Source: an uncultured Methylococcales bacterium
GTDB taxonomy: Bacteria; Pseudomonadota; Gammaproteobacteria; Methylococcales; Methylothermaceae
Length of the DNA stretch: 32,000 bases
Direction: 5' to 3'
Assembly (NCBI GenBank): GCA_964445885.1
Contig: CAYUPV010000005.1
Span: 1-32,000 of the forward strand
Part shown: positions 4,459 through 30,827 of the stretch, one piece after another
How the letters are laid out: every line of letters begins with the position of its first letter
How positions within the stretch are numbered: the first letter of the stretch is position 1
Notes under the pieces: model-generated
Told to the model about the DNA's origin: nothing
What the model saw: only the letters and a program-made list of their open reading frames with translations
Databases searched by the model: none
Made by a program: the position numbers and the translations under genes

Positions 4459-5181
4459 CTAATCGAGCCGATCACTTGCAAAGAGTTTTTCCAGTGCCTG
4501 CCTGTCCAGAATCCGGATCCATTTGCCGCGAACCTCCAGCCATCCGTTCTTCTCGAATTGTTTGAGGGTACGGCTGACGGTGGCCAGGGCCAGGTCGAGA
4601 TAGTTGCCCAATTCCTGACGGGTGAAACCGATGGAGAATTGTTCGCCAGAAAAGCCGCGGAAGGCATAACGTTCGGACAAATCCAATAAAAAGGCCGCCA
4701 GTCTTTGTTCCGCCGGTTTTTTGATAAACAGCGTCTGGGTTCTTTGATTGCTGATGGCATCGCTGGCATGACGCAGGATCTCATCGAGCAGGGTGGGTAT
4801 CCGGAAACAGATCCGGTGCAGCTGATGAGCGGGTAGTTCACAATAACTCAGTGTATCCAATGCCTGGGCAGAGCAGCGGTGTTTCTGCTGAGCAATGGCG
4901 CCAAACCCCAGGATCTCCCCCGGCAACAGGATCTGAACGATATGCTCCTCGCTCTGTTCGTTGTGATATACCAGTTTGGCCATGCCGGATTTGATGGCGA
5001 TCAGGCCCTCGAAGGCGTCTCCATTACGAAACAGGAACTCCCCCTTGTGTAGTACCTTGCGGCGTTGCACTACATCTTCGAGTTGACTGATCTCTTCCTT
5101 GGTCAGGCCTCGGGGGAAACAGACACTGTTGAATCCACAATTTTGACAGGTGACTTGGAATCCTGGCTGTGTTGGGGTCAT
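4459..5181 (-). CDS. fnr: FNR/ANR-type oxygen-sensing Crp/Fnr family transcriptional regulator
   Basis: The N-terminal cysteine cluster CQNCGFNSVC (C-x2-C-x5-C) plus a later Cys in SYCELP parallels E. coli FNR C20/C23/C29/C122. A cNMP-binding-like fold and a C-terminal HTH (FTRQELGNYLDLALATVSRTLKQF) are present. I place the start at the ATG at 5181, because the upstream extension in the track is AT-rich promoter DNA. Confidence 0.85.
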   Translation of the reverse strand: MTPTQPGFQVTCQNCGFNSVCFPRGLTKEEISQLEDVVQRRKVLHKGEFLFRNGDAFEGLIAIKSGMAKLVYHNEQSEEHIVQILLPGEILGFGAIAQQKHRCSAQALDTLSYCELPAHQLHRICFRIPTLLDEILRHASDAISNQRTQTLFIKKPAEQRLAAFLLDLSERYAFRGFSGEQFSIGFTRQELGNYLDLALATVSRTLKQFEKNGWLEVRGKWIRILDRQALEKLFASDRLD

Positions 5182-5309
5182 GCGCTTGTTGTCATCTTTG
5201 ATTGGGGTGAAATGATACACGAGTATTTGAGTCGGAAAATCCAAAATACTGGCCTTGAAGATATTTATACCGTTATAATTTAGATTATTAATAAAAACCA
5301 CCCTCAAAC

Positions 5310-6140
5310 ATGGCCGATACACAGCTGTTATACCGCTTCAACCAATTGAGATCCTCGCTCGATCGATTCCTGACCCAGCTCCTCAGTGAAAATCATCGAG
5401 CCTGGGTGTTCGACCTCAACAAACATGAATACCTCGATCATGTTGCCCGTACGACACTGACAGACGTACTGGAGCGGCTCGAATATCAGGATGAGAGGGA
5501 TGGTCGTGTGACTGATATCTGTCCTGGAATCGTTGGCGCCTCAGGCAAATTGCTGAGGCTGGCTGGAGAACTCAATCGCCGGCGTGACGAATTCAAACAG
5601 GCGGTGCTGGCGGCAAACAGCAAAGATCGGGAACAGGCCCGTCGAATCATGACTCACCACGGGTTTCCACGGTTGCACTTCAAGCAGCTTTATCGCCATC
5701 TGCCAGTTTTATTGAAAAAGCCGGATTCGATCCGCTTCACCTGGGGAACGACCCGTTCGATCAAAAAAATCACCCGCCAGGCAGCCTACCAGAGATTGGC
5801 GAGACTGGGGGGTGAAGATCCATCTCCAGGGTATCACAAGCAACTGGAACTGTTGGCACAGCATCCCAAAGAGGAACCGATCGCCATCGTCCAGGATCTG
5901 AAGCCCCATATCAAGGCCAATGTGTGTTGGATCCAGCAGAATGGGAAGGAAAGGAATATCACCCGCAGGATGATCAGCGCTGCGTTGGCCATCCTGATTC
6001 CCATGGACCCGGGCGAAGCCTTGCCCGATTATTCCGCCGCCTTTCCAGACAGCAGGAAGCCCAGGAAACCACGCTCGGATGTGAAGATCGAAAGGGAAGC
6101 GTTTTTGCCATCCATCAGAGGGCATCGTTATTGCGAGTAA
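5310..6140 (+). CDS. tus: Tus-family (DNA replication terminus site-binding protein)-like protein, 276 aa
   Basis: Collinear motif matches to E. coli Tus as recalled from memory: ICPGIV/RLPGVL; THHGFPRLHFKQLYRHLPVL/HRHLPGLITLNAYRTLTVL; PDSIRFTWGTTRSIKKI/PATLRFGWANKHIIKNL; KPHIKANVCW/KVQPIARVWY; SAALAILIPMDPG/PTPLIALINRDNG; LPSIRGHRY/IPRLHLYV. The gene ends 16 bp from a dif site. Confidence 0.6.
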   Translation: MADTQLLYRFNQLRSSLDRFLTQLLSENHRAWVFDLNKHEYLDHVARTTLTDVLERLEYQDERDGRVTDICPGIVGASGKLLRLAGELNRRRDEFKQAVLAANSKDREQARRIMTHHGFPRLHFKQLYRHLPVLLKKPDSIRFTWGTTRSIKKITRQAAYQRLARLGGEDPSPGYHKQLELLAQHPKEEPIAIVQDLKPHIKANVCWIQQNGKERNITRRMISAALAILIPMDPGEALPDYSAAFPDSRKPRKPRSDVKIEREAFLPSIRGHRYCE

Positions 6141-6156: not shown

Positions 6157-6184
6157 ATTTAACATAATATACATTATACGAAGT
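6157..6184 (-). other. dif: dif, the XerC/XerD chromosome dimer resolution site
   Basis: The minus strand reads ACTTCGTATAA-TGTATA-TTATGTTAAAT. E. coli dif is GGTGCGCATAA-TGTATA-TTATGTTAAAT. The XerD arm matches 11/11, the central hexamer 6/6 and the XerC arm 7/11. The site is intergenic, and KOPS octamers switch strand here. Confidence 0.85.
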
Positions 6185-9002: not shown

Positions 9003-10445
9003 TCAGTCCGGTTCCTGGAATCTCTGGATGTCGTCCTCGCCCAGATAGGCTCCCGATTGGACTTCGATCAATTCCAGAGGAATCCTGCCGGGATTTTCCA
9101 GACGATGTCTCACTCCCACAGGGATATAAGTGGACTGGTTCTCGGTCAGGAGGAAGGTTTCCTCCTCCCGGCCCCTGGTGATATGGGCGGTACCCTTGAC
9201 GACGATCCAGTGTTCGGCCCGGTGGTGATGCAGCTGGGTCACTACGTGCGCCCCCGGCCGGACTGTCAGGCGGTTTACCTGATAACGCTCACCCTTGCTG
9301 ATGTTCTCGATGGTTCCCCATGGGCGGTGGATCCTGAGGTGGTGGTGGTGCTCATGGCGTCCGTTCGTCTTCAGGAATTGGGCCACCTCCCTTACTTTCT
9401 GGGCACTATCCTTGTGGGCCACCAGGATAGCATCAGCGGTCTCGGTGATGATCAGATCGGACACCCCCAGGGCTGCCACGAAACGTTCGCCTGCATACAC
9501 CAGGGAGTTGCTGACGTCATTCAGATAGGCATCGCCGTGGACTATATTGCCACGTTCATCCGTGTCCTCCACTTCCCACAGGGCAGGCCACGAGCCCAGG
9601 TCCGACCAACCGGCATCCAGCGGCAGTACGACCGCGGTCGAATCCTGACCTGCGATTTTCTCCATGACTGCATAATCGATGGAATCGGAAGGACAGTGCT
9701 CGAATGCCGTCTGGTCCAGACGGAAAAAGTCGCTGTCCCGCAGCCCCGCCACGACGGCTTTTTCACACGCTTCGAGGATATCGGGTCTGAAGCGGCCAAT
9801 GGCCTTCAGCCAACACTTGGCACGCAGGACAAATATGCCGCTGTTCCACAGATAATCGCCGGATTCCAAATATCCCTGTGCCGTTTCAGCATCGGGTTTC
9901 TCCACAAATGCTTCCAGGATCCTTGCCCGCCCCTCCAGCGCATTTCCGGCACGGAGATAACCGAAACCGGTTTCAGGACGGGTGGGTACGATGCCGAAGG
10001 TGACGACATGTCCATGGTCGGCCCAATGGATGGCCTCCGCCAGAGTGGCACAGAAAGCATCACAGTCGCGTACCACATGGTCTGAAGGCATGACCGCGAG
10101 CACTGGGTCATTGTGACCACCAACCGCCACCAGGGCCGCACAGGTGAGTGCGGGTGCTGTATTCCGTCCGTTGGGTTCGAGAAGGATGGTGTCAGGTCGC
10201 CTGCCGAGTTCCCGCAGTTGTTCCGCCACCAGAAAACGGTGAGATTCGTTACAGACGTACAGGGGGGGCTGTAATTGAATGTCTTGCACCATTCGACCCA
10301 ATTGATCGACCCTCAGGACGGTCTGTTGCAGCAGACTATGATCGCCACCGAGGCTGAGAAACTGCTTTGGATAAGCCTCGCGCGATAACGGCCACAGTCG
10401 CGTTCCAGAGCCACCTGACAGGATGACGGGCTTGAATTGGATCAT
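9003..10445 (-). CDS. manC: Bifunctional mannose-1-phosphate guanylyltransferase / mannose-6-phosphate isomerase (type II PMI-GMP; AlgA/XanB/ManC family)
   Basis: The N-terminal nucleotidyltransferase motif is GGSGTRLWPLSR. The C-terminal cupin isomerase region includes RPWG...HHHRAEHWIVV.G. At 480 aa the size fits. Confidence 0.9.
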   Translation of the reverse strand: MIQFKPVILSGGSGTRLWPLSREAYPKQFLSLGGDHSLLQQTVLRVDQLGRMVQDIQLQPPLYVCNESHRFLVAEQLRELGRRPDTILLEPNGRNTAPALTCAALVAVGGHNDPVLAVMPSDHVVRDCDAFCATLAEAIHWADHGHVVTFGIVPTRPETGFGYLRAGNALEGRARILEAFVEKPDAETAQGYLESGDYLWNSGIFVLRAKCWLKAIGRFRPDILEACEKAVVAGLRDSDFFRLDQTAFEHCPSDSIDYAVMEKIAGQDSTAVVLPLDAGWSDLGSWPALWEVEDTDERGNIVHGDAYLNDVSNSLVYAGERFVAALGVSDLIITETADAILVAHKDSAQKVREVAQFLKTNGRHEHHHHLRIHRPWGTIENISKGERYQVNRLTVRPGAHVVTQLHHHRAEHWIVVKGTAHITRGREEETFLLTENQSTYIPVGVRHRLENPGRIPLELIEVQSGAYLGEDDIQRFQEPD

Positions 10446-10451
10446 TTCGAT

Positions 10452-11774
10452 TTACCTGCGGCCGATACCGAAATACTCGAATCCCTGCTGGCGGACGAAT
10501 CCCGGATCGTAAAGATTGCGGCCATCGAAGATCACGGGCTTGCGCAGCAGTCGTTTCATGGTATCGAAATCAGGACTGCGGAAGAGGTTCCATTCGGTCA
10601 CCAGGGCCAGTCCATCCGCCCCTTCGAGGGCGACCATGGGGTCATTGACCAGTTGCAGCTCCTCTCTTTCGCCATAGATCCGTCTCGCTTCGTTCAAGGC
10701 CACCGGATCGTAGGCCTGCACTCTGGCGCCCGCCTGCCACAGGGACTCCATCAACACCCGGCTGGGTGCTTCCCGCATATCGTCGGTGTTGGGCTTGAAG
10801 GCCAGGCCCCACAGCGCGATCGTTTTGCCCTCCAGTTCCCCACCATAATAGTGATGAAGTTTTTCGTACAAGCGCCTTTTCTGCCGATCATTGACGTTTT
10901 CCACCGCGCTGAGCAACTCGGCCTGGTAGTCCATTTCCCTGGCAGCGCGTTCCAACGCTTTCACGTCCTTGGGAAAACATGAACCCCCGTATCCACAGCC
11001 TGGATAGATGAAGTGATAACCAATTCTTGGATCGGAGCCGATTCCGATCCGCACTTGTTCGATATCGGCCCCTACCCTTTCCGCCAGGTTGGCCAGTTCG
11101 TTCATGAAACTGATTTTGGTGGCGAGCATGGCGTTGGCTGCATATTTGGTCAGTTCAGCCGAACGGATGTCCATCGCGACCAGGCGTTCGTGATTGCGGT
11201 TGAAGGGCGCATAGAGGGCTTTCAGCAGTTCTGTGGTGCGGGGGTTGTCGGTGCCAACGACGATACGGTCAGGCTTCATGAAATCATCGATGGCGGCGCC
11301 TTCCTTGAGAAACTCGGGATTGGACACCACGTCGAATTCGACCTGAGAGCCTCTTTGTTGCTGGATTTCCTCGATCGTTGCCCTCACTGTGTCGGCCGTG
11401 CCCACCGGAACCGTCGACTTGTCGACGACGATGCGGTATTCGGTCATCCGCTCGGCAATGGCGCGGGCCACCGCGATGACATATTGGAGATCCGCGCTGC
11501 CATCCTCATCTGGTGGCGTTCCCACCGCAATAAACTGAAACAGTCCATGGGCGACCGCCTCGTCCGCATCCGTGGTGAAAGACAATCTGCCCGCGTCACG
11601 GTTACGGTTGATCAGGCTATCCAGCCCCGGTTCATAAATGGGGACCTCGCCTCGGTTGAGACATTCGATCTTGTCGGCGTCGATATCGATACACAGCACT
11701 TCGTTACCCACCTCGGCCAGGCAGGCACCCGTCACCAGACCCACATAACCGCTGCCGTAAATAGTCACCTTCAT
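10452..11774 (-). CDS. ugd: UDP-glucose 6-dehydrogenase
   Basis: The Rossmann motif is [14 protein letters not shown] and the catalytic Cys context is [10 protein letters not shown]. The protein is 440 aa. Its start ATG overlaps the metZ stop (ATGA). Confidence 0.9.
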
Positions 11775-12974: not shown

Positions 12975-14483
12975 TTAGATGGAATTGTGAAGATCGATGT
13001 TCAGATTGTCATTGTCCTGTTTTTTCTTGGCTCTGTCGTTGCGTCGCTGGCTCAACTGGTCCAGATATTCGGGAGTGATGTCCGCCGTGACGTAGTGACC
13101 GCTGAAGCAACTGGTCTCGAATTGCCCCAAATTGGGATTGCCACGGCGGACCGCCTCGGTCAGATCCTCCAGATCCTGGTATATCAACCAATCAGCGCCC
13201 AGGATTCGTTGCACCTCCTCTTCGCTGCGACCGTGGGCGACCAGCTCCGAGGAAGCCGGCATGTCGATGCCATAGACATAAGGATAGCGCACCGGAGGCG
13301 AGGCGGAAGCAAAATAGACGTTCCTGGCACCGGCTTCACGGGCCATCTGGATGATCTGTTTGGAGGTGGTGCCACGGACGATGGAATCGTCCACCAGAAG
13401 GACGTTCCGGTCCTTGAATTCCACGTCGATGGGATTGAGCTTGCGCCTCACCGAACGCTGACGCATTTGTTGTCCCGGCATGATGAATGTGCGGCCGATA
13501 TAGCGGTTCTTCATGAACCCTTCCCGGTATTTGACACCCAGACGGTTGGCCAGCTCCAGGGCAGCGGTACGGCTGGTATCAGGAATGGGGATGACGGCAT
13601 CGATGTGGTGATCGGGATTGAGACTCAGGATCTTTTCCGCCAGTTTCTTGCCCATCTGCAGGCGGGCCTTGTAGACCGAAATACCATCGATGACCGAATC
13701 GGGGCGGGCGAAATAGACGAATTCGAAGATACAGGGGGCATGGGTCACCGGCTCGACACATTGGCGGCTATGGAGCCGGCCGTCTTTTTCGATGAAGACC
13801 GCCTCGCCCGGCCTGATGTCCCGAACCCGCTCGAATCCCAGCACATCGAGGGCGACGCTCTCAGACGCAATGATGAATTCCGGTCCGGAAGCGGACTCCC
13901 GTCTGCCGATCACCACCGGGCGGACACCGTAAGGATCGCGGAAGCCGAGCACCCCGAAACCGGTAATCATGGCTGTCACTGCATAGGCTCCCCGGCATCG
14001 ACGATGGACTTCAGTGACCGCGTGAAAGACATCGTTGACGTCAAGACGCAACTTGCCGAGTCGCTGCAACTCATGGGCAAACACGTTGAGCAGGACTTCG
14101 GAATCCGAATCCGTATTGATATGGCGTTGATCCTGGAGAAACAGTTCCTGTTTGAGGATCTCCGCATTGGTGAGATTGCCGTTGTGGCTCAGAGTGATGC
14201 CATAAGGGGAGTTGACATAGAAAGGCTGGGCTTCGGCGGAACTGGTACAGCCGGCGGTGGGGTAGCGCACATGACCGATACCCATGGTGCCGCCCAGATG
14301 CTGCATGTGCTCGGCCTGAAACACATCCCTCACCAGGCCCCTGTCCTTGCGTAGGAAAAAGCGCCCACCTTCGTAGGTGACGATCCCGGCGGCATCCTGC
14401 CCCCGGTGCTGAAGGACGGTCAACGCCTCGTATAACGCCTGATTGACGGGAGAATGGGCAACGATACCAACGATTCCACACAT
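12975..14483 (-). CDS. purF: Amidophosphoribosyltransferase
   Basis: The start MCGIVG supplies the N-terminal nucleophile Cys, so I place the start at the ATG at 14483 rather than the track start at 14573. The PRPP-binding loop is [13 protein letters not shown]. The protein is 502 aa. Confidence 0.95.
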
Positions 14484-15253: not shown

Positions 15254-16567
15254 CTATTTCTTCCGGCTGTCCAAATCCCTCAAATGGGCCAGTTTGGTGG
15301 CAATTTTGATTTCCAGTCCCCGGTCAACCGGTTGGTAGTAACGGGCAGGCTTCATATTTTCCGGGAAATAGCATTCCCCTGCCGCATAGGCTTCCGGCTC
15401 ATCATGGGCATAGCGATAACGTTTACCATAGCCCAGTTCTTTCATCAGTTTGGTAGGGGCATTGCGCAAATGTACCGGAACCTCCAGGCTACCGGTGCTC
15501 GCAGCATCTCCTTGAGCCGCTTGATAAGCGCGATAGACAGCATTGCTCTTTGGCGCACAGGCCAAATAGACCGCGGCTTGGGCCAGCGACAGTTCCCCTT
15601 CGGGTGAACCCAGACGCTCTTGGGCCTGCCAGGCGTTCAAGGCCAGCTGCAGAGCGCGAGGATCGGCATTGCCGATGTCTTCGGAGGCAATTCTGACCAG
15701 ACGACGGGCAATATAAAAGGGATCGCAACCTCCATTCAGCATCCTGCAAAGCCAGTATAGAGAGGCATCGGGATCGCTGCCGCGTATGGTTTTGTGAAGG
15801 GCTGAAATCTGATCGTAGAAGTCGTCTCCCTGGCGGTCGAAACGCCTCACGCTGCCCCCGGACAGAACGTCGCGGGCCAGCTCTTCAGTGATGCGGGCCC
15901 TTCCAACCTCATCCACCGCCAACTCTACCATGATTTCCAACAGGTTCAGTAATCTTCGGGCATCCCCATCGGCGGCATCAACCAACCAATGACGGACCGA
16001 TTCGGGCAGATCCACCTCGATATCAGACAACCCGTCGGGATGAGTCAGCGCCCGGTCGATCACCTTTTCCAGGTCGTCTTGAGCAAGGGATTTGAGAACA
16101 TAGACCCGAGTCCGCGACAACAAGGCATTGTTCAAAGCAAAGGAAGGGTTTTCGGTGGTAGCGCCGATGAAGTGAATGACTCCATTCTCAATATGTGGCA
16201 GGAAGGCATCCTGTTGTGCTTTGTTGAACCGGTGGACCTCATCCACGAATAAAATCGTACCCCTTCCCTGCTGTTGGAAAAGTTTGGCCTTTTGTATTGA
16301 TTCTCGGATTTCTTTTATATTGGATAGTACAGCAGATAACGATATAAATTCGACATCCCCCGTTCCCGCTATCATTCTGGCCAAGGTGGTTTTTCCCGTT
16401 CCGGGAGGCCCCCACAGAATCATGGAATGGAGGTGCCCTGCCTGAACGGCTTCATGCAACGGCTTGCCGGGAGACAACAAGTGGTTCTGGCCGATGAAAT
16501 CCGTCAGGTTGCGGGGACGGAGGCGGTCTGCGAGGGGACGGAACCTCGATGTGTCAGTCTCGTTCAT
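15254..16567 (-). CDS. rarA: Replication-associated recombination protein A (AAA+ ATPase RarA/MgsA)
   Basis: Walker A is GPPGTGKTT and Walker B is ILFVDEVHRFNK. The C-terminal MgsA domain is conserved. The start overlaps the lolA stop (TGATG). Confidence 0.95.
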   Translation of the reverse strand: MNETDTSRFRPLADRLRPRNLTDFIGQNHLLSPGKPLHEAVQAGHLHSMILWGPPGTGKTTLARMIAGTGDVEFISLSAVLSNIKEIRESIQKAKLFQQQGRGTILFVDEVHRFNKAQQDAFLPHIENGVIHFIGATTENPSFALNNALLSRTRVYVLKSLAQDDLEKVIDRALTHPDGLSDIEVDLPESVRHWLVDAADGDARRLLNLLEIMVELAVDEVGRARITEELARDVLSGGSVRRFDRQGDDFYDQISALHKTIRGSDPDASLYWLCRMLNGGCDPFYIARRLVRIASEDIGNADPRALQLALNAWQAQERLGSPEGELSLAQAAVYLACAPKSNAVYRAYQAAQGDAASTGSLEVPVHLRNAPTKLMKELGYGKRYRYAHDEPEAYAAGECYFPENMKPARYYQPVDRGLEIKIATKLAHLRDLDSRKK

Positions 16568-17193
16568 CAGCCTCTGAAGACATCGACACCCGGAGGCGGC
16601 ACGAACTTGAAAAGTTCGTCTTTCAGCGGAGGATTGATCTCCATTTTGGAAAAACGAATTCGCGTCAACTGGCCGAAGTTATCCGCCAACTCCATCAAAG
16701 CCAGCTTGCCATCCTGCATTTCGACCCGAAGTTTACGGAACACATCATTTTCCTCCTTGGGTACCAGTTCCACCCAGGATCCTCGTTCGTCTCTACCCGC
16801 CCTTTTCACCACGAAGCGTTCTGACAATTTCAGCTGACCACTGAGCAACAGTGCCGGAGCCGAACCTAAAGCGGAGTCAATGGTCCTGACGGTGACCTGC
16901 TCCAGATCGGGATCATAAAACCAGACCTCGGTCCCGTCGGCCACGATCTCCTGCGGATAAGGATCTGCGTAGGTCCAACGGAATCTGCCCGGTCGCTTGA
17001 GATAGAATTTACCACGACTTAGCTGCGTCACCACCCCTTTGTCATCCAGGGTCTGCTGAACGAAATCCGCGGAAAGTGTACTTACTGACGAAAGGAAGCT
17101 TTCCAGCTCTTCGTCCGGGGCAGAGGCTGCCACAACACTATTGAGCCAAAGCGCCAACACTATGAAGAAAACTTTCCAGGTGTTTAATAACAT
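16567..17193 (-). CDS. lolA: Outer-membrane lipoprotein carrier protein LolA
   Basis: There is a signal peptide ([22 protein letters not shown]). The LolA-typical segment is FVQQTLDDKG...SRGKFYLKRPGRFRW. The gene has the ftsK-lolA-rarA synteny. The ATG at 17193 overlaps the ftsK stop. Confidence 0.9.
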   Translation of the reverse strand: MLLNTWKVFFIVLALWLNSVVAASAPDEELESFLSSVSTLSADFVQQTLDDKGVVTQLSRGKFYLKRPGRFRWTYADPYPQEIVADGTEVWFYDPDLEQVTVRTIDSALGSAPALLLSGQLKLSERFVVKRAGRDERGSWVELVPKEENDVFRKLRVEMQDGKLALMELADNFGQLTRIRFSKMEINPPLKDELFKFVPPPGVDVFRG

Positions 17194-19619
17194 CAATCCT
17201 CCACTGGCGGGGGTGCCAAAACCGTCCGTGAGCCGTTTCCTTCTGCCGGACTGACCACACCTGCCCGCTCCATTTCCTCGACAATCCGTGCCGCTCGGTT
17301 GTAACCGATTTTGAACTTGCGCTGCACACTCGAAATGGAGACCCGCCGGGTTTCAGTGACGAAATGTACCGCCTCGTCATATAGAGCATCGGCTTCCCCC
17401 TCAGGTTCCCCTTCATCTATCTGGCCCTCGCTTTCGTCTTGGAAGCGAGTGATCTCATCGATATATCGGGGGCGACCTGTCTGCTTCAGGTATTCCACCA
17501 CTCTCAGGACCTCGTGATCATCCACAAAGGCACCATGAGCCCGTAGAGGGAATCCGGTCCCTGGGGGGAGAAAAAGCATGTCCCCACTTCCGAGCAGGGT
17601 CTCGGCGCCGCTTTGATCGAGAATCGTGCGGGAATCAACCTTGGAGGAGACCTGGAAGGCAATCCGGGTGGGAACGTTGGCTTTGATGAGGCCGGTGAGG
17701 ACGTCCACTGAAGGTCTCTGGGTCGCGAGAATCAGATGCAGACCGGCGGCACGGGCCTTCTGGGCCAGGCGGGCGATCAGTTCTTCGACTTTCTTGCCCA
17801 CCAGCATCATCATGTCGGCCAGTTCGTCGATGACGACCACAATCACCGGTAGGGGTTCCAGGGTCGGCCAACTACTCCCTTCTTCCAATTCGTTGGCGCG
17901 GAAGAAGGGGTCCTTGATCGGTTCTCCCCGTTCGATGGCTTCTTGCACCTTGCGGTTGTATCCGGCCAGGTTGCGTACCTTGAGCGCAGACATCAAGCGA
18001 TAGCGTCGGTCCATCTCCGCCACACACCATCTAAGCGCTGAGGCGGCCTCTTTCATGTCAGTGACGACCGGACTCAGGAGATGGGGAATGCCTTCATACA
18101 CTGACAATTCCAACATCTTCGGATCAATCATGATCAGGCGCACTTCCTGGGACGTTGCCTTGTAGAGCAAACTCAGAATCATGGCATTGATCGCTACCGA
18201 CTTACCGGAGCCGGTGGTGCCAGCCACCAACAGATGCGGCATCTTGGCCAGATCGGCCACCACGGGACGGCCTGAAATGTCCTTGCCCAGCACCAGGGTC
18301 ACCGGGGATTTGGCTTGCTGATATTCCCGGCTGGTGAAGATCTCGCGCAAGTAGACCGTCTCACGCTCTCGATTAGGAATCTCCAGCCCCACAAAGGACT
18401 TGCCCGGAATCACCTCTACCACGCGCACGCTGGGGACCGACAGGGACCGGGCCAAATCAGTCGCAAGGTTGGAGATCCGGCTGCCCTTGATACCTGGTCC
18501 AGGCTGAATCTCGAAGCGGGTAATCACAGGACCGGGATGCACTTCCTTCACCTTGGCCTTGACCCCAAAGTCAGCCAGAACCGCCTCCAGTTGTTTGGAC
18601 ATGAAATCCAGATCCGAATTGGAATACCCCTGCCCATGCATCATCGCTTCCTCGAGGAAATCGAGGGAAGGCAGGGCGGGCTCCACTGGGATATCCAGCT
18701 CGACCGTGCGGGGGGCTGCTTTCTTGCGGATAATAGGTCCGTCAGCGTCCTTAGGTGTTCGTCCCACAGGTGTCGAGCTCAATCCTTTGCCATCGGGAGC
18801 CACCAGACCGTCGGGGCGGGCTGCTGGTGGATTTGGAGAGGCTTTCGAAGCGCTACCGGGGTCGAGCCTGTCATTATCCAGCTCTGGAGGCAACGCGACT
18901 TTGGGCTCGCGCCGACGAGGCGAGACAACGGCAGTGGGAGCACGCGTCACCTTCGATGTCTCAATGGTTTTCCTTCGCGTCCACCATCGAAGTGTCCACC
19001 GATGTGCGGTCTCCCACCCCAGCAGCACATATTTTCCTATCTTTTCCATCAGCTCGAGCCAGGACAGTCCGGTGAACAGCGTCACCCCGGCAAGGAAAAT
19101 CACCAGCAGCGCCAGGGTCGCTCCCAAGACCCCGAAGCGCCCCATCAACCACTCCCCTATTTCTCCTCCAAGGATACCGCCGGTGGTTTCGGGTATATCC
19201 ATCATCGTGCGCTTGACATGGATGTAACAAAGGCTGGATCCTGCCAGCAAGGTGGTGAAAAAGCCGCCCCAGCGAAGTCCCAGGATGCCCCAGTCCCGAC
19301 GCGAATGGAGCGGGTGCCGATACACCAACCAGCCATGCCATACGATCATCACCGGGAACAAATAGGCCATCACACCCACGAAGGAAAGGGAGAGATCCGT
19401 GATCCAGGCGCCGAACTGACCGCCAGCATTGGCCAGAGGACGTCCGCTTCCGGTGTGACGCCAGCCGGGGTCCTCAAGATCGAAGGTAAAGAGAGAGAGC
19501 AAAAGATAGAGGCCGACAGCAAAATAGCAGAACAACCAGACTTCACGAAGCCCGTGGGTGACACGTTCCACGGCCTCGTTGACAAAGGCTTTTTTGGTTT
19601 GTGACAAGGGAATCGACAC
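17193..19619 (-). CDS. ftsK: DNA translocase FtsK
   Basis: The protein has N-terminal TM helices, a Pro-rich linker and a motor domain with Walker A GTTGSGKS. The C-terminal gamma winged helix ([23 protein letters not shown]) is the domain that reads KOPS. Confidence 0.95.
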
Positions 19620-30796: not shown

Positions 30797-30827
30797 TTTA
30801 TACCTTGATAAGCATAGCAGCTGTCAA
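30797..30827 (-). promoter_or_regulatory. Candidate sigma70-type promoter for the GTPase operon
   Basis: The minus strand reads TTGACA-N19-TATAAA in the 145-bp gap after the U32 gene. The spacer is long, and the -10 element ends only 19 nt before the ATG, which would imply a very short leader. Confidence 0.3.

Follow-up and report, generated by a model that had tools for sequence, protein, structure and literature searches.

A divergent Tus-family protein encoded next to dif in a Methylothermaceae genome, and a candidate Ter motif for its non-enteric relatives

The Tus-Ter system of Escherichia coli is a type II fork trap with ten Ter sites and an inner gap of 270 kb, and its tus gene is found outside TerB, about 95 kb from dif, with transcription running away from the latter. 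Of the two faces of Ter, the non-permissive one is the G6 end, which points towards dif, and the flipped base C6 is received by a cytosine-lock pocket formed by I79, F140, H144 and G149 of Tus. Resident tus genes have been regarded as confined, besides plasmids, to Enterobacterales, Aeromonadales and Pseudoalteromonas (Galli et al., 2019, PMC6549158; 2023 review, PMC10331603). According to the published view, the domestication of plasmid tus genes happened on no more than three occasions, all of them recent (PMC6549158), and most bacteria are inferred to terminate replication without a trap (PMC6549158, PMC10331603). Here, a stretch of 32,000 nucleotides (contig CAYUPV010000005.1, positions 1 to 32,000; hereafter the window) from an uncultured, methane-oxidising Methylothermaceae bacterium (Methylococcales), a non-enteric source, was analysed because it carries a tus-like gene immediately beside dif. 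This gene is a divergent resident member of a large, undescribed, terminus-associated clade of non-enteric Gammaproteobacteria. The overall best explanation, to which we assign a probability of roughly 0.6, is a resident divergent Tus-family protein with a putative Ter site of ~15 bp and a two-site fork trap around dif. The features of the window on which this explanation is built are the following.

5179 to 5309, no strand: crp/fnr-tus intergenic region between divergent genes; contains the left candidate site and presumably the tus promoter
5264 to 5278, + strand: left candidate Ter site or tus operator, TTTATACCGTTATAA, 32-46 bp upstream of the tus ATG
5310 to 6140, + strand: tus-like gene, open reading frame with ATG start, 276 amino acids (aa), divergent Tus-family (PF05472) terminus-site-binding protein
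6157 to 6184, - strand: dif (XerC/XerD chromosome-dimer resolution site), 24 of 28 positions identical to E. coli dif
16334 to 16348, - strand: right candidate Ter site, reading AGATAACGATATAAA on the + strand, 14 of 15 positions identical to the family 15-mer, inside rarA/mgsA

With the E. coli system (Protein Data Bank (PDB) entries 1ECR, 2I05 and the 4XR series) the locus shares the protein family and the fold and an asymmetric (here candidate) site in the tus promoter region, and the candidate sites that flank dif would likewise be of opposite polarity; moreover, the dif-facing end of the candidate site matches the G6 (non-permissive) end of TerB in position. However, the window protein is only 17-19% identical to E. 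coli Tus, its site lacks the GTTGTAAC core, and the lock-pocket residues are not demonstrably conserved in the window family, where an invariant arginine aligns with G149. Instead of ten Ter sites there are two candidate sites ~11 kb apart, the host belongs to the Methylococcales and not to the enteric bacteria, and the window tus gene lies inside the putative trap and is transcribed towards dif, 16 bp away. The type I "ancestral" fork trap of non-Enterobacteriaceae Enterobacterales such as Edwardsiella tarda and Dickeya paradisiaca (Toft et al., 2021, PMC8707476) also resembles the window in its architecture: it is a minimal dyad of two opposed Ter sites, one innermost site adjoins tus, and the narrow trap lies at the GC-skew switch and dif. 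Nevertheless, type I traps have a canonical Tus and E. coli-like Ter cores, whereas a separate deep clade and another motif are found in the window, where tus is also inverted and lies between its own candidate Ter site and dif. The Tus proteins of IncC and other large conjugative plasmids (compare the R1/R6K Ter sites) are PF05472 members and have the DSIRFTW and Y-R landmarks in common with the window protein. They are plasmid-encoded and tied to unidirectional plasmid replication, whereas the window gene is carried by the chromosome, at the terminus, and keeps its synteny across a bacterial family. Finally, RTP-Ter of Bacillus subtilis is a functional analogue with polar barriers in opposed clusters around the terminus, but RTP is an unrelated winged-helix dimer for which no homology to the window protein was detected.

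Tus-family membership of the window protein

The first-pass annotation of this DNA had described a 276-aa reading frame at 5310-6140, 16 bp from dif, and its coordinates, length and gap all proved correct (dif, 6157-6184). It had also proposed that the product is a Tus-family homologue, to be checked by a Pfam search and a predicted fold, and both checks agree with this proposal. The Pfam profile PF05472 (Ter protein; InterPro IPR008865) gave a significant match (E 7.7e-12, 45.3 bits, twice the gathering score of 22) whose alignment covers residues 81-165 only, and the same profile matched 24 of 27 family members at E <= 0.01. For profile-profile comparison, a 27-sequence alignment of the window protein family (A1) was set against a canonical profile (A3) consisting of the Tus proteins of E. 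coli, Citrobacter and four plasmids, the plasmid proteins being 26-29% identical to E. coli Tus. The diversity of the canonical profile was taken from plasmid tus genes because a homologue search with E. coli Tus, which was dropped as a profile source, listed only near-identical Citrobacter and Escherichia proteins. The two profiles were aligned by hhalign with 97.6% probability (E 4.7e-12, 252 aligned columns, positions 14-294 of 311), whereas the comparison with E. coli Tus alone reached only 67% probability (E 5e-5). In PLSDB, record NZ_OL790696.1 is a 4.8-Mb E. coli record with the chromosomal tus (99.7% identity) and is evidently a chromosome or a mis-typed replicon.

An AlphaFold (AF2) model of the window protein, based on alignment A1, had a mean pLDDT (predicted local distance difference test) of 89.6. 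When this model was compared with the PDB by Foldseek, four E. coli Tus entries (4xr2, 4xr1, 4xr0 and 1ecr) were retrieved with E 2e-16 to 2e-14, TM (template modelling) scores of 0.65-0.70 and ~313 aligned columns at 17-19% identity, and the next PDB match had an E value of 0.07, so that the predicted fold matches that of Tus only. The model was judged to have the Tus fold, which is that of two alpha/beta domains joined by DNA-binding interdomain beta-strands. The RF.W....I.K block, in which collinearity with E. coli Tus had been noticed from the sequence alone (IRFTWGTTRSIKKI vs LRFGWANKHIIKNL), was recovered by MAFFT as well as by hhalign, and the DSIRFTW stretch of the window protein is identical in IncC-plasmid Tus. 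The landmarks common to both proteins are given below (window protein first, E. coli Tus second).

R66: K89
G73: G96
Y128-R129: Y156-R157
F143 and W145: F170 and W172 (RF.W block)
K198: K235
A203: A240

By profile, profile-profile and modelled-fold comparison, the window protein is thus a highly divergent member of the Tus family.

The terminus setting and its conservation among relatives

The 28-bp dif-like site of the window, ATTTAACATAATATACATTATACGAAGT, is separated by 16 bp from the tus stop codon. Its XerD arm and its 6-bp spacer (central hexamer) are identical to those of E. coli dif, all four mismatches fall in the XerC arm, and the canonical order of XerC arm, spacer and XerD arm is read on the - strand. 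A search allowing <=3 mismatches to E. coli dif missed the site because it has four. The cumulative GC skew climbs to ~5 kb and declines from ~6 kb, its maximum at ~4.5-6 kb coinciding with dif; this switch of the skew at tus-dif is the pattern expected of a replication terminus. GC content is 0.50 across positions 4501-6000 (crp-tus-dif) and ~0.56 in the flanks, a dip that is partly due to AT-rich intergenic regions and dif.

The gene order of the locus is ABC transporter, Crp/Fnr, tus, dif, DAO/ThiO-like, ychF, manC, ugd, metZ, purF, (cvpA), rarA, lolA and ftsK. This order and the Methylothermaceae origin bear out the non-enteric synteny that had been recognized in the first reading. The Crp-family gene beside tus is on the - strand; its Methylomarinovum caldicuralii orthologue has 235 aa, and gene callers differ on the length of this gene (235 aa vs 280 aa). 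The rarA-lolA-ftsK cluster (15254-19619, - strand) is only 9-13 kb from dif, so that the gene for FtsK, the XerCD-activating DNA translocase at dif, is a neighbour of the terminus. Between crp/fnr and tus, Methylothermaceae have a further conserved box, AATGATACACGA, which precedes the Ter-like motif described below by ~45-60 bp; the window copy is aaatgatacacgagtat at 5206-5222, and the box is also present in the upstream regions of L001, L004, L005, L006 and L009. This box could be bound by a regulator, or it could encode an N-terminal extension of the Crp-family gene.

The setting was compared across 80 related loci (L001 etc.) from a scan of one genome per species, with flanks of +/-10 kb each and ~1.5 Mb in total. 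The adjacency of tus and dif, which had been pointed out as unlike the E. coli arrangement, is kept in 8 of 10 related Methylothermaceae loci, where the site lies within ~10-125 bp downstream of the tus stop codon. In two Methylohalobius loci (L010, dif at 13619-13646; L012, dif at 4520-4547) inserted genes separate dif from tus, which are 2.8-3.7 kb apart. The central hexamer of dif is altered in L010 (GTGTAT/ACACAT instead of TGTATA), and the spacer is also altered in L008 (CTTTAT). The upstream synteny (ABC transporter, Crp/Fnr) is common to the complete M. caldicuralii genome, in which tus is located at 1.48 of 2.69 Mb. Downstream of tus, the GC skew on the tus strand was negative in 74 of the 80 measurable related loci. 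In Methylothermaceae and many Competibacteraceae the skew switches from positive to negative at tus; in Reinekea, Saccharospirillum and Piscirickettsia both flanks of tus have a negative skew, which places the terminus upstream of the gene. In Piscirickettsia salmonis tus lies at 49.7% of a 3.08-Mb chromosome record, and in L072 (Competibacteraceae) a dif matching at 26 of 28 positions is found 8 kb upstream of tus. Outside Methylothermaceae, tus is usually >10 kb from dif.

The exact window protein occurs on metagenome contigs only. Its nearest relatives (54-72% identity) belong to Methylothermaceae, namely Methylomarinovum, Methylohalobius, Methylothermus and metagenome-assembled genomes (MAGs), and the next tier (32-39% identity) to Candidatus Competibacteraceae. 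An exhaustive profile search of 1.84 billion representatives (50% identity clusters) returned 1,157 clusters at E <= 1e-3, of which 300 were found at E <= 1e-30. The hosts of the 80 loci include Competibacter/Contendobacter, Saccharospirillum, Reinekea, Piscirickettsia salmonis, Neptunomonas, Berkiella/Coxiellaceae/Legionellales and Francisellaceae MAGs, and Sinobacterium is an additional host of a family member. Locus L047 (JAAUTD010000051.1, labelled Synechococcaceae cyanobacterium SM1_2_3) is a Competibacteraceae-type tus locus and most likely a binning contaminant, not a cyanobacterial Tus. Several orthologues have already been auto-named "DNA replication terminus site-binding protein", and the homology is therefore partly known to databases; a search of the available literature found no paper discussing these non-enteric relatives.

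Contact with dif also raises the question of whether tus is the cargo of a Xer-using mobile element at dif (an integrative mobile element exploiting Xer, IMEX) or a plasmid module of recent acquisition. The gene is frequent on plasmids, its domestication from them has been argued for in print (PMC6549158), and the GC content is lower at 4.5-6 kb (0.50 vs ~0.56). However, the window holds a single dif-like site, with no second dif or pseudo-dif flanking tus, and no integrase, replication or transfer genes occur nearby. The crp-tus-dif-thiO synteny recurs in Methylomarinovum and further Methylothermaceae (54-72% protein identity), which fits vertical descent, and in other orders the window-type relatives likewise belong to the chromosome and lie close to the terminus. 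We consider a mobile origin of this kind very improbable.

A candidate Ter motif and its polarity

An asymmetric motif, AGAT(A/G)A(C/T)G(G/A)TATAA, adjoins tus in three clades whose proteins are only 32-39% identical. In Methylothermaceae the site takes the form (A/T)(G/T)(A/T)TAACGG(T/C)ATAAAT, and all ten Methylothermaceae loci with upstream sequence have its core TTTATRCCGTTA (window 5264-5275) 20-70 bp ahead of the tus start codon. The left site of the window overlaps a TATAAT-like hexamer, and its ATAACGG end is turned towards tus and dif. In all eight Reinekea and Saccharospirillum loci, with proteins of 32-34% identity, the same 14-mer is found 2-6 bp before the ATG as AGATAACGGTATAA, inverted relative to tus in comparison with Methylothermaceae. 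The 11-mer had 20 perfect matches in the 1.5 Mb of related loci, 18 of them within 85 bp upstream of tus; L004, with a distal copy, and L009 account for the remaining two, and all 20 were assigned to the tus system. In L031, L032 and L034 (Saccharospirillum), a copy with one mismatch, TTATGCCGTTG, is present at 11393-11403 (- strand), ~550 bp downstream of tus, and is oriented like the promoter-proximal site; either a weak second site or a chance match may explain it. A recognisable motif was not found upstream of tus in Berkiella, Legionellales, Piscirickettsia and Neptunomonas, where the sites, if any, differ.

The Competibacteraceae have a two-base variant, AGATGATG(A/G)TATAA. With <=1 mismatch, 73 copies were counted in 41 loci (1-3 per locus), every one of them on the same strand, and they are located upstream of tus, just after the tus stop codon and at ~+3.6, +4.5, +6.5 and +8 kb; 52 of the 73 are outside any open frame of >=150 aa. 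Most Competibacteraceae loci have a copy upstream of tus. Copies of opposite polarity were not found within 10 kb upstream in Competibacteraceae-type loci. Arrays of TTATAYCATCATCT in a single orientation occur in L002, L016, L024, L028, L036, L044, L061, L065 and ~30 other Competibacteraceae-type loci (in L028, for example, at 9922, 10888 and 18167, all on the - strand) and look like a one-sided Ter cluster.

In the window, two hits were obtained with <=2 mismatches to the 15-mer, compared with none in 100 shuffled sequences, and the candidate site sequences for the window protein are AGATAACGATATAAA and TTATAACGGTATAAA. The two sites are mutually inverted at a spacing of 11.1 kb, with the same (AGAT-type) end facing inward to dif, giving the layout left site, tus, dif, ~10 kb of housekeeping genes and right site. 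The right site spans the rarA codons TTT-ATA-TCG-TTA-TCT (F-I-S-L-S). In the window, ATA accounts for 6.8% of Ile, TTA for 4.5% of Leu, TCT for 8.3% of Ser and TTT for 33% of Phe codons, and the joint probability of these synonymous choices is ~1.5e-5 under the average codon usage of the window, which argues for selection on the DNA sequence itself. A perfect copy (15/15) is present at the equivalent rarA position in L004, and in L008 an inverted copy lies at an equal distance from dif in the lolA-cvpA intergenic spacer, a non-orthologous position. In L009 an additional copy of unchanged orientation is found on the tus side, 9.8 kb further out, in the manner of a back-up Ter. The gene rarA, which hosts the putative right site, encodes a replication-fork-associated ATPase. 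A sequence at 30798 (+ strand), TTATACCTTGAT, with two mismatches to the 12-mer, was dismissed as chance; its polarity is also wrong.

On the tus strand of Oceanospirillales and Competibacteraceae, the motif starts with its AGAT end, as TerB of E. coli does with its G6 end, and the terminus is upstream of tus, whereas in Methylothermaceae the site is flipped relative to tus and dif is downstream of it. In every clade with the motif, a fork leaving the terminus meets the AGAT end first. As far as sequence comparison goes, the polarity of the motif is conserved relative to the terminus, not relative to tus, and this conservation together with the flipped gene orientation fits the prediction for a polar replication barrier and not that for a promoter element. 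The blocking face was assigned by analogy with E. coli TerB, which is located just upstream of tus and reads AATAAGTATGTTGTAACTAAAGT on the coding strand; the AGAT end would thus be the non-permissive one. The specific candidate Ter motif for this Tus family is new here. It sharpens the earlier suggestion of a divergent fork-trap protein, in which the Ter sites had been left unspecified.

The motif might instead be bound by another factor, or be a promoter or structural element, while the Tus-like protein recognises different Ter sites. It is near-palindromic over 10 bp, ATA(A/C)CG(G/T)TAT, so that a dimeric regulator is conceivable, whereas Tus is a monomer on an asymmetric site, and a Crp/Fnr-family gene is divergently transcribed beside tus. 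However, the two asymmetric positions as well as the AGAT and TATAA flanks are themselves conserved, and the motif accompanies tus amid different neighbours (LysR in L002; in Saccharospirillum, an unrelated gene that is read in the same direction). A Crp/Fnr box was rejected as its identity: the motif is unlike TTGAT-N4-ATCAA or TGTGA-N6-TCACA and is also found with tus in genomes without a crp neighbour. A fixed promoter element was likewise rejected, as the orientation of the motif towards tus is not constant and copies are also present inside rarA and between convergent genes. Moreover, the two-base change of the motif coincides exactly with the change of protein clade. Recognition by another factor is improbable, though less so than a mobile origin of the gene.

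A putative two-site fork trap and what it would mean

In the proposed mechanism, the window protein would bind as a monomer to the asymmetric ~15-bp site AGAT(A/G)A(C/T)G(G/A)TATAA, and forks arriving at the AGAT face would be blocked in a polar way. The proximal copy (5264-5278), by its position in the tus promoter region, would probably also mediate autoregulation, that is, self-repression of tus, as TerB does for E. coli tus. The right inverted copy in rarA (16334-16348), 10 kb beyond dif and with its AGAT end inward, would be the opposite boundary. By analogy with E. coli, each site would let the fork of its own replichore pass and stop a fork that is already past dif, and termination would be confined to an interval of ~11 kb containing tus and dif.

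Besides the near-palindrome, several observations weigh against this mechanism. The NCBIfam Tus equivalog cut-offs were missed (TIGR02648 and NF002810; 29.6 bits vs 323 and 24.1 bits vs 178.3), so that the window protein is a family member and no equivalog-level orthologue, and function is not automatically transferable. Neither phmmer with the protein nor hmmsearch with the family profile found Tus among the PDB sequences; the relationship is thus distant and visible solely via Pfam, profile-profile and fold comparison. The E. coli lock pocket is not demonstrably conserved in the window family and, judged by alignment, is probably absent. The first reading had listed an HxxxP segment (THHGFP vs HRHLPG) near this pocket among the collinear blocks. 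Of the block, the proline stands (P120 aligns with P148 of E. coli Tus), but H116 and H117 vary freely among the relatives in alignment A1, and MAFFT and hhalign are discordant across residues 110-132. Under the better-supported alignment, the F140-H144 stretch of E. coli Tus falls in an indel-rich, unreliably aligned region, and Gly149, which never varies in canonical and plasmid Tus, is matched by an equally invariant arginine of the window family (R121). With the histidines variable, F140-H144 in an indel and G149 replaced, conservation of the pocket is unsupported and the HxxxP segment is no evidence for it.

On the side of the DNA, no match with <=3 mismatches to canonical E. coli Ter (core GTTGTAAC, consensus AGNATGTTGTAACTAA) was found in the window, and the likeness of the AGATAACGGTATAA-like site to the Ter core is weak and gapped only. 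When E. coli AG-ATGTTGTAACTAAA is aligned with the Competibacter site AGATGATGGTATAAAA, 11 of 16 positions are common with one base deleted after G6, a likeness that is suggestive only. The tus-proximal site in the window and several relatives reads TTATAACGG or AAATAACGG, without "AG"; the window copy is TTATAACGG and not AGATAACGG, and therefore lacks the G·C pair that would correspond to GC(6). The right-hand inverted copy was found only in the window, L004 and L008, and not within the +/-10 kb flanks of the other Methylothermaceae loci. Finally, the direction of replication was judged from GC skew over 10 kb, which is a noisy indicator.

Some of these points also agree with a Tus-fold protein that binds the motif without arresting forks, as an autoregulated terminus-region binder, for example a terminus organiser or an XerCD/FtsK accessory at dif. 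This is a serious rival, although clearly the less probable account. The overlap of the proximal site with the presumptive tus promoter, the contact of tus with dif and an ftsK gene 11 kb away, the lock-pocket residues that are not demonstrably conserved and the AG end that is often missing from the proximal site are all in line with it. On the other hand, a pure operator does not explain the one-orientation arrays that extend out to 8 kb from tus, nor the inverted rare-codon copy inside rarA, nor the polarity that is kept relative to the terminus despite the flip relative to tus. A dedicated Xer accessory role is unlikely for the family because outside Methylothermaceae tus is usually more than 10 kb from dif.

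Taken together, the fork-trap explanation points to a much wider distribution of Tus-type fork traps than has been published, with ~1,150 Tus-fold clusters, at or near the terminus in many gammaproteobacterial lineages, and a conserved, polar and clustered motif. A bolder proposal, for which we would give slightly less than even odds, is that the family is an old, vertically inherited fork-trap system with its own Ter consensus AGAT(A/G)A(C/T)G(G/A)TATAA across many non-enteric Gammaproteobacteria (Methylococcales, Competibacteraceae, Oceanospirillales, Piscirickettsiaceae, Legionellales/Berkiella and Cellvibrionales-like taxa), and that Methylothermaceae have the most compact trap yet seen, with two sites ~11 kb apart and tus and dif inside. 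If this is true, the view of few and recent plasmid domestications of tus would be overturned, the canonical, C6-locking Tus of enteric bacteria might have branched off as a derived form from a broader family, and this broader family may arrest forks without a C6 lock. If the motif is a Ter site, the phylogenetic range and age of fork traps would need revision, the minimal two-site, dif-centred trap would be a natural test case for the purpose of fork traps, and a comparison between E. coli Tus and a family that seems to lack the Gly149/His144 pocket would reveal if the cytosine lock is indispensable or a refinement of enteric bacteria.

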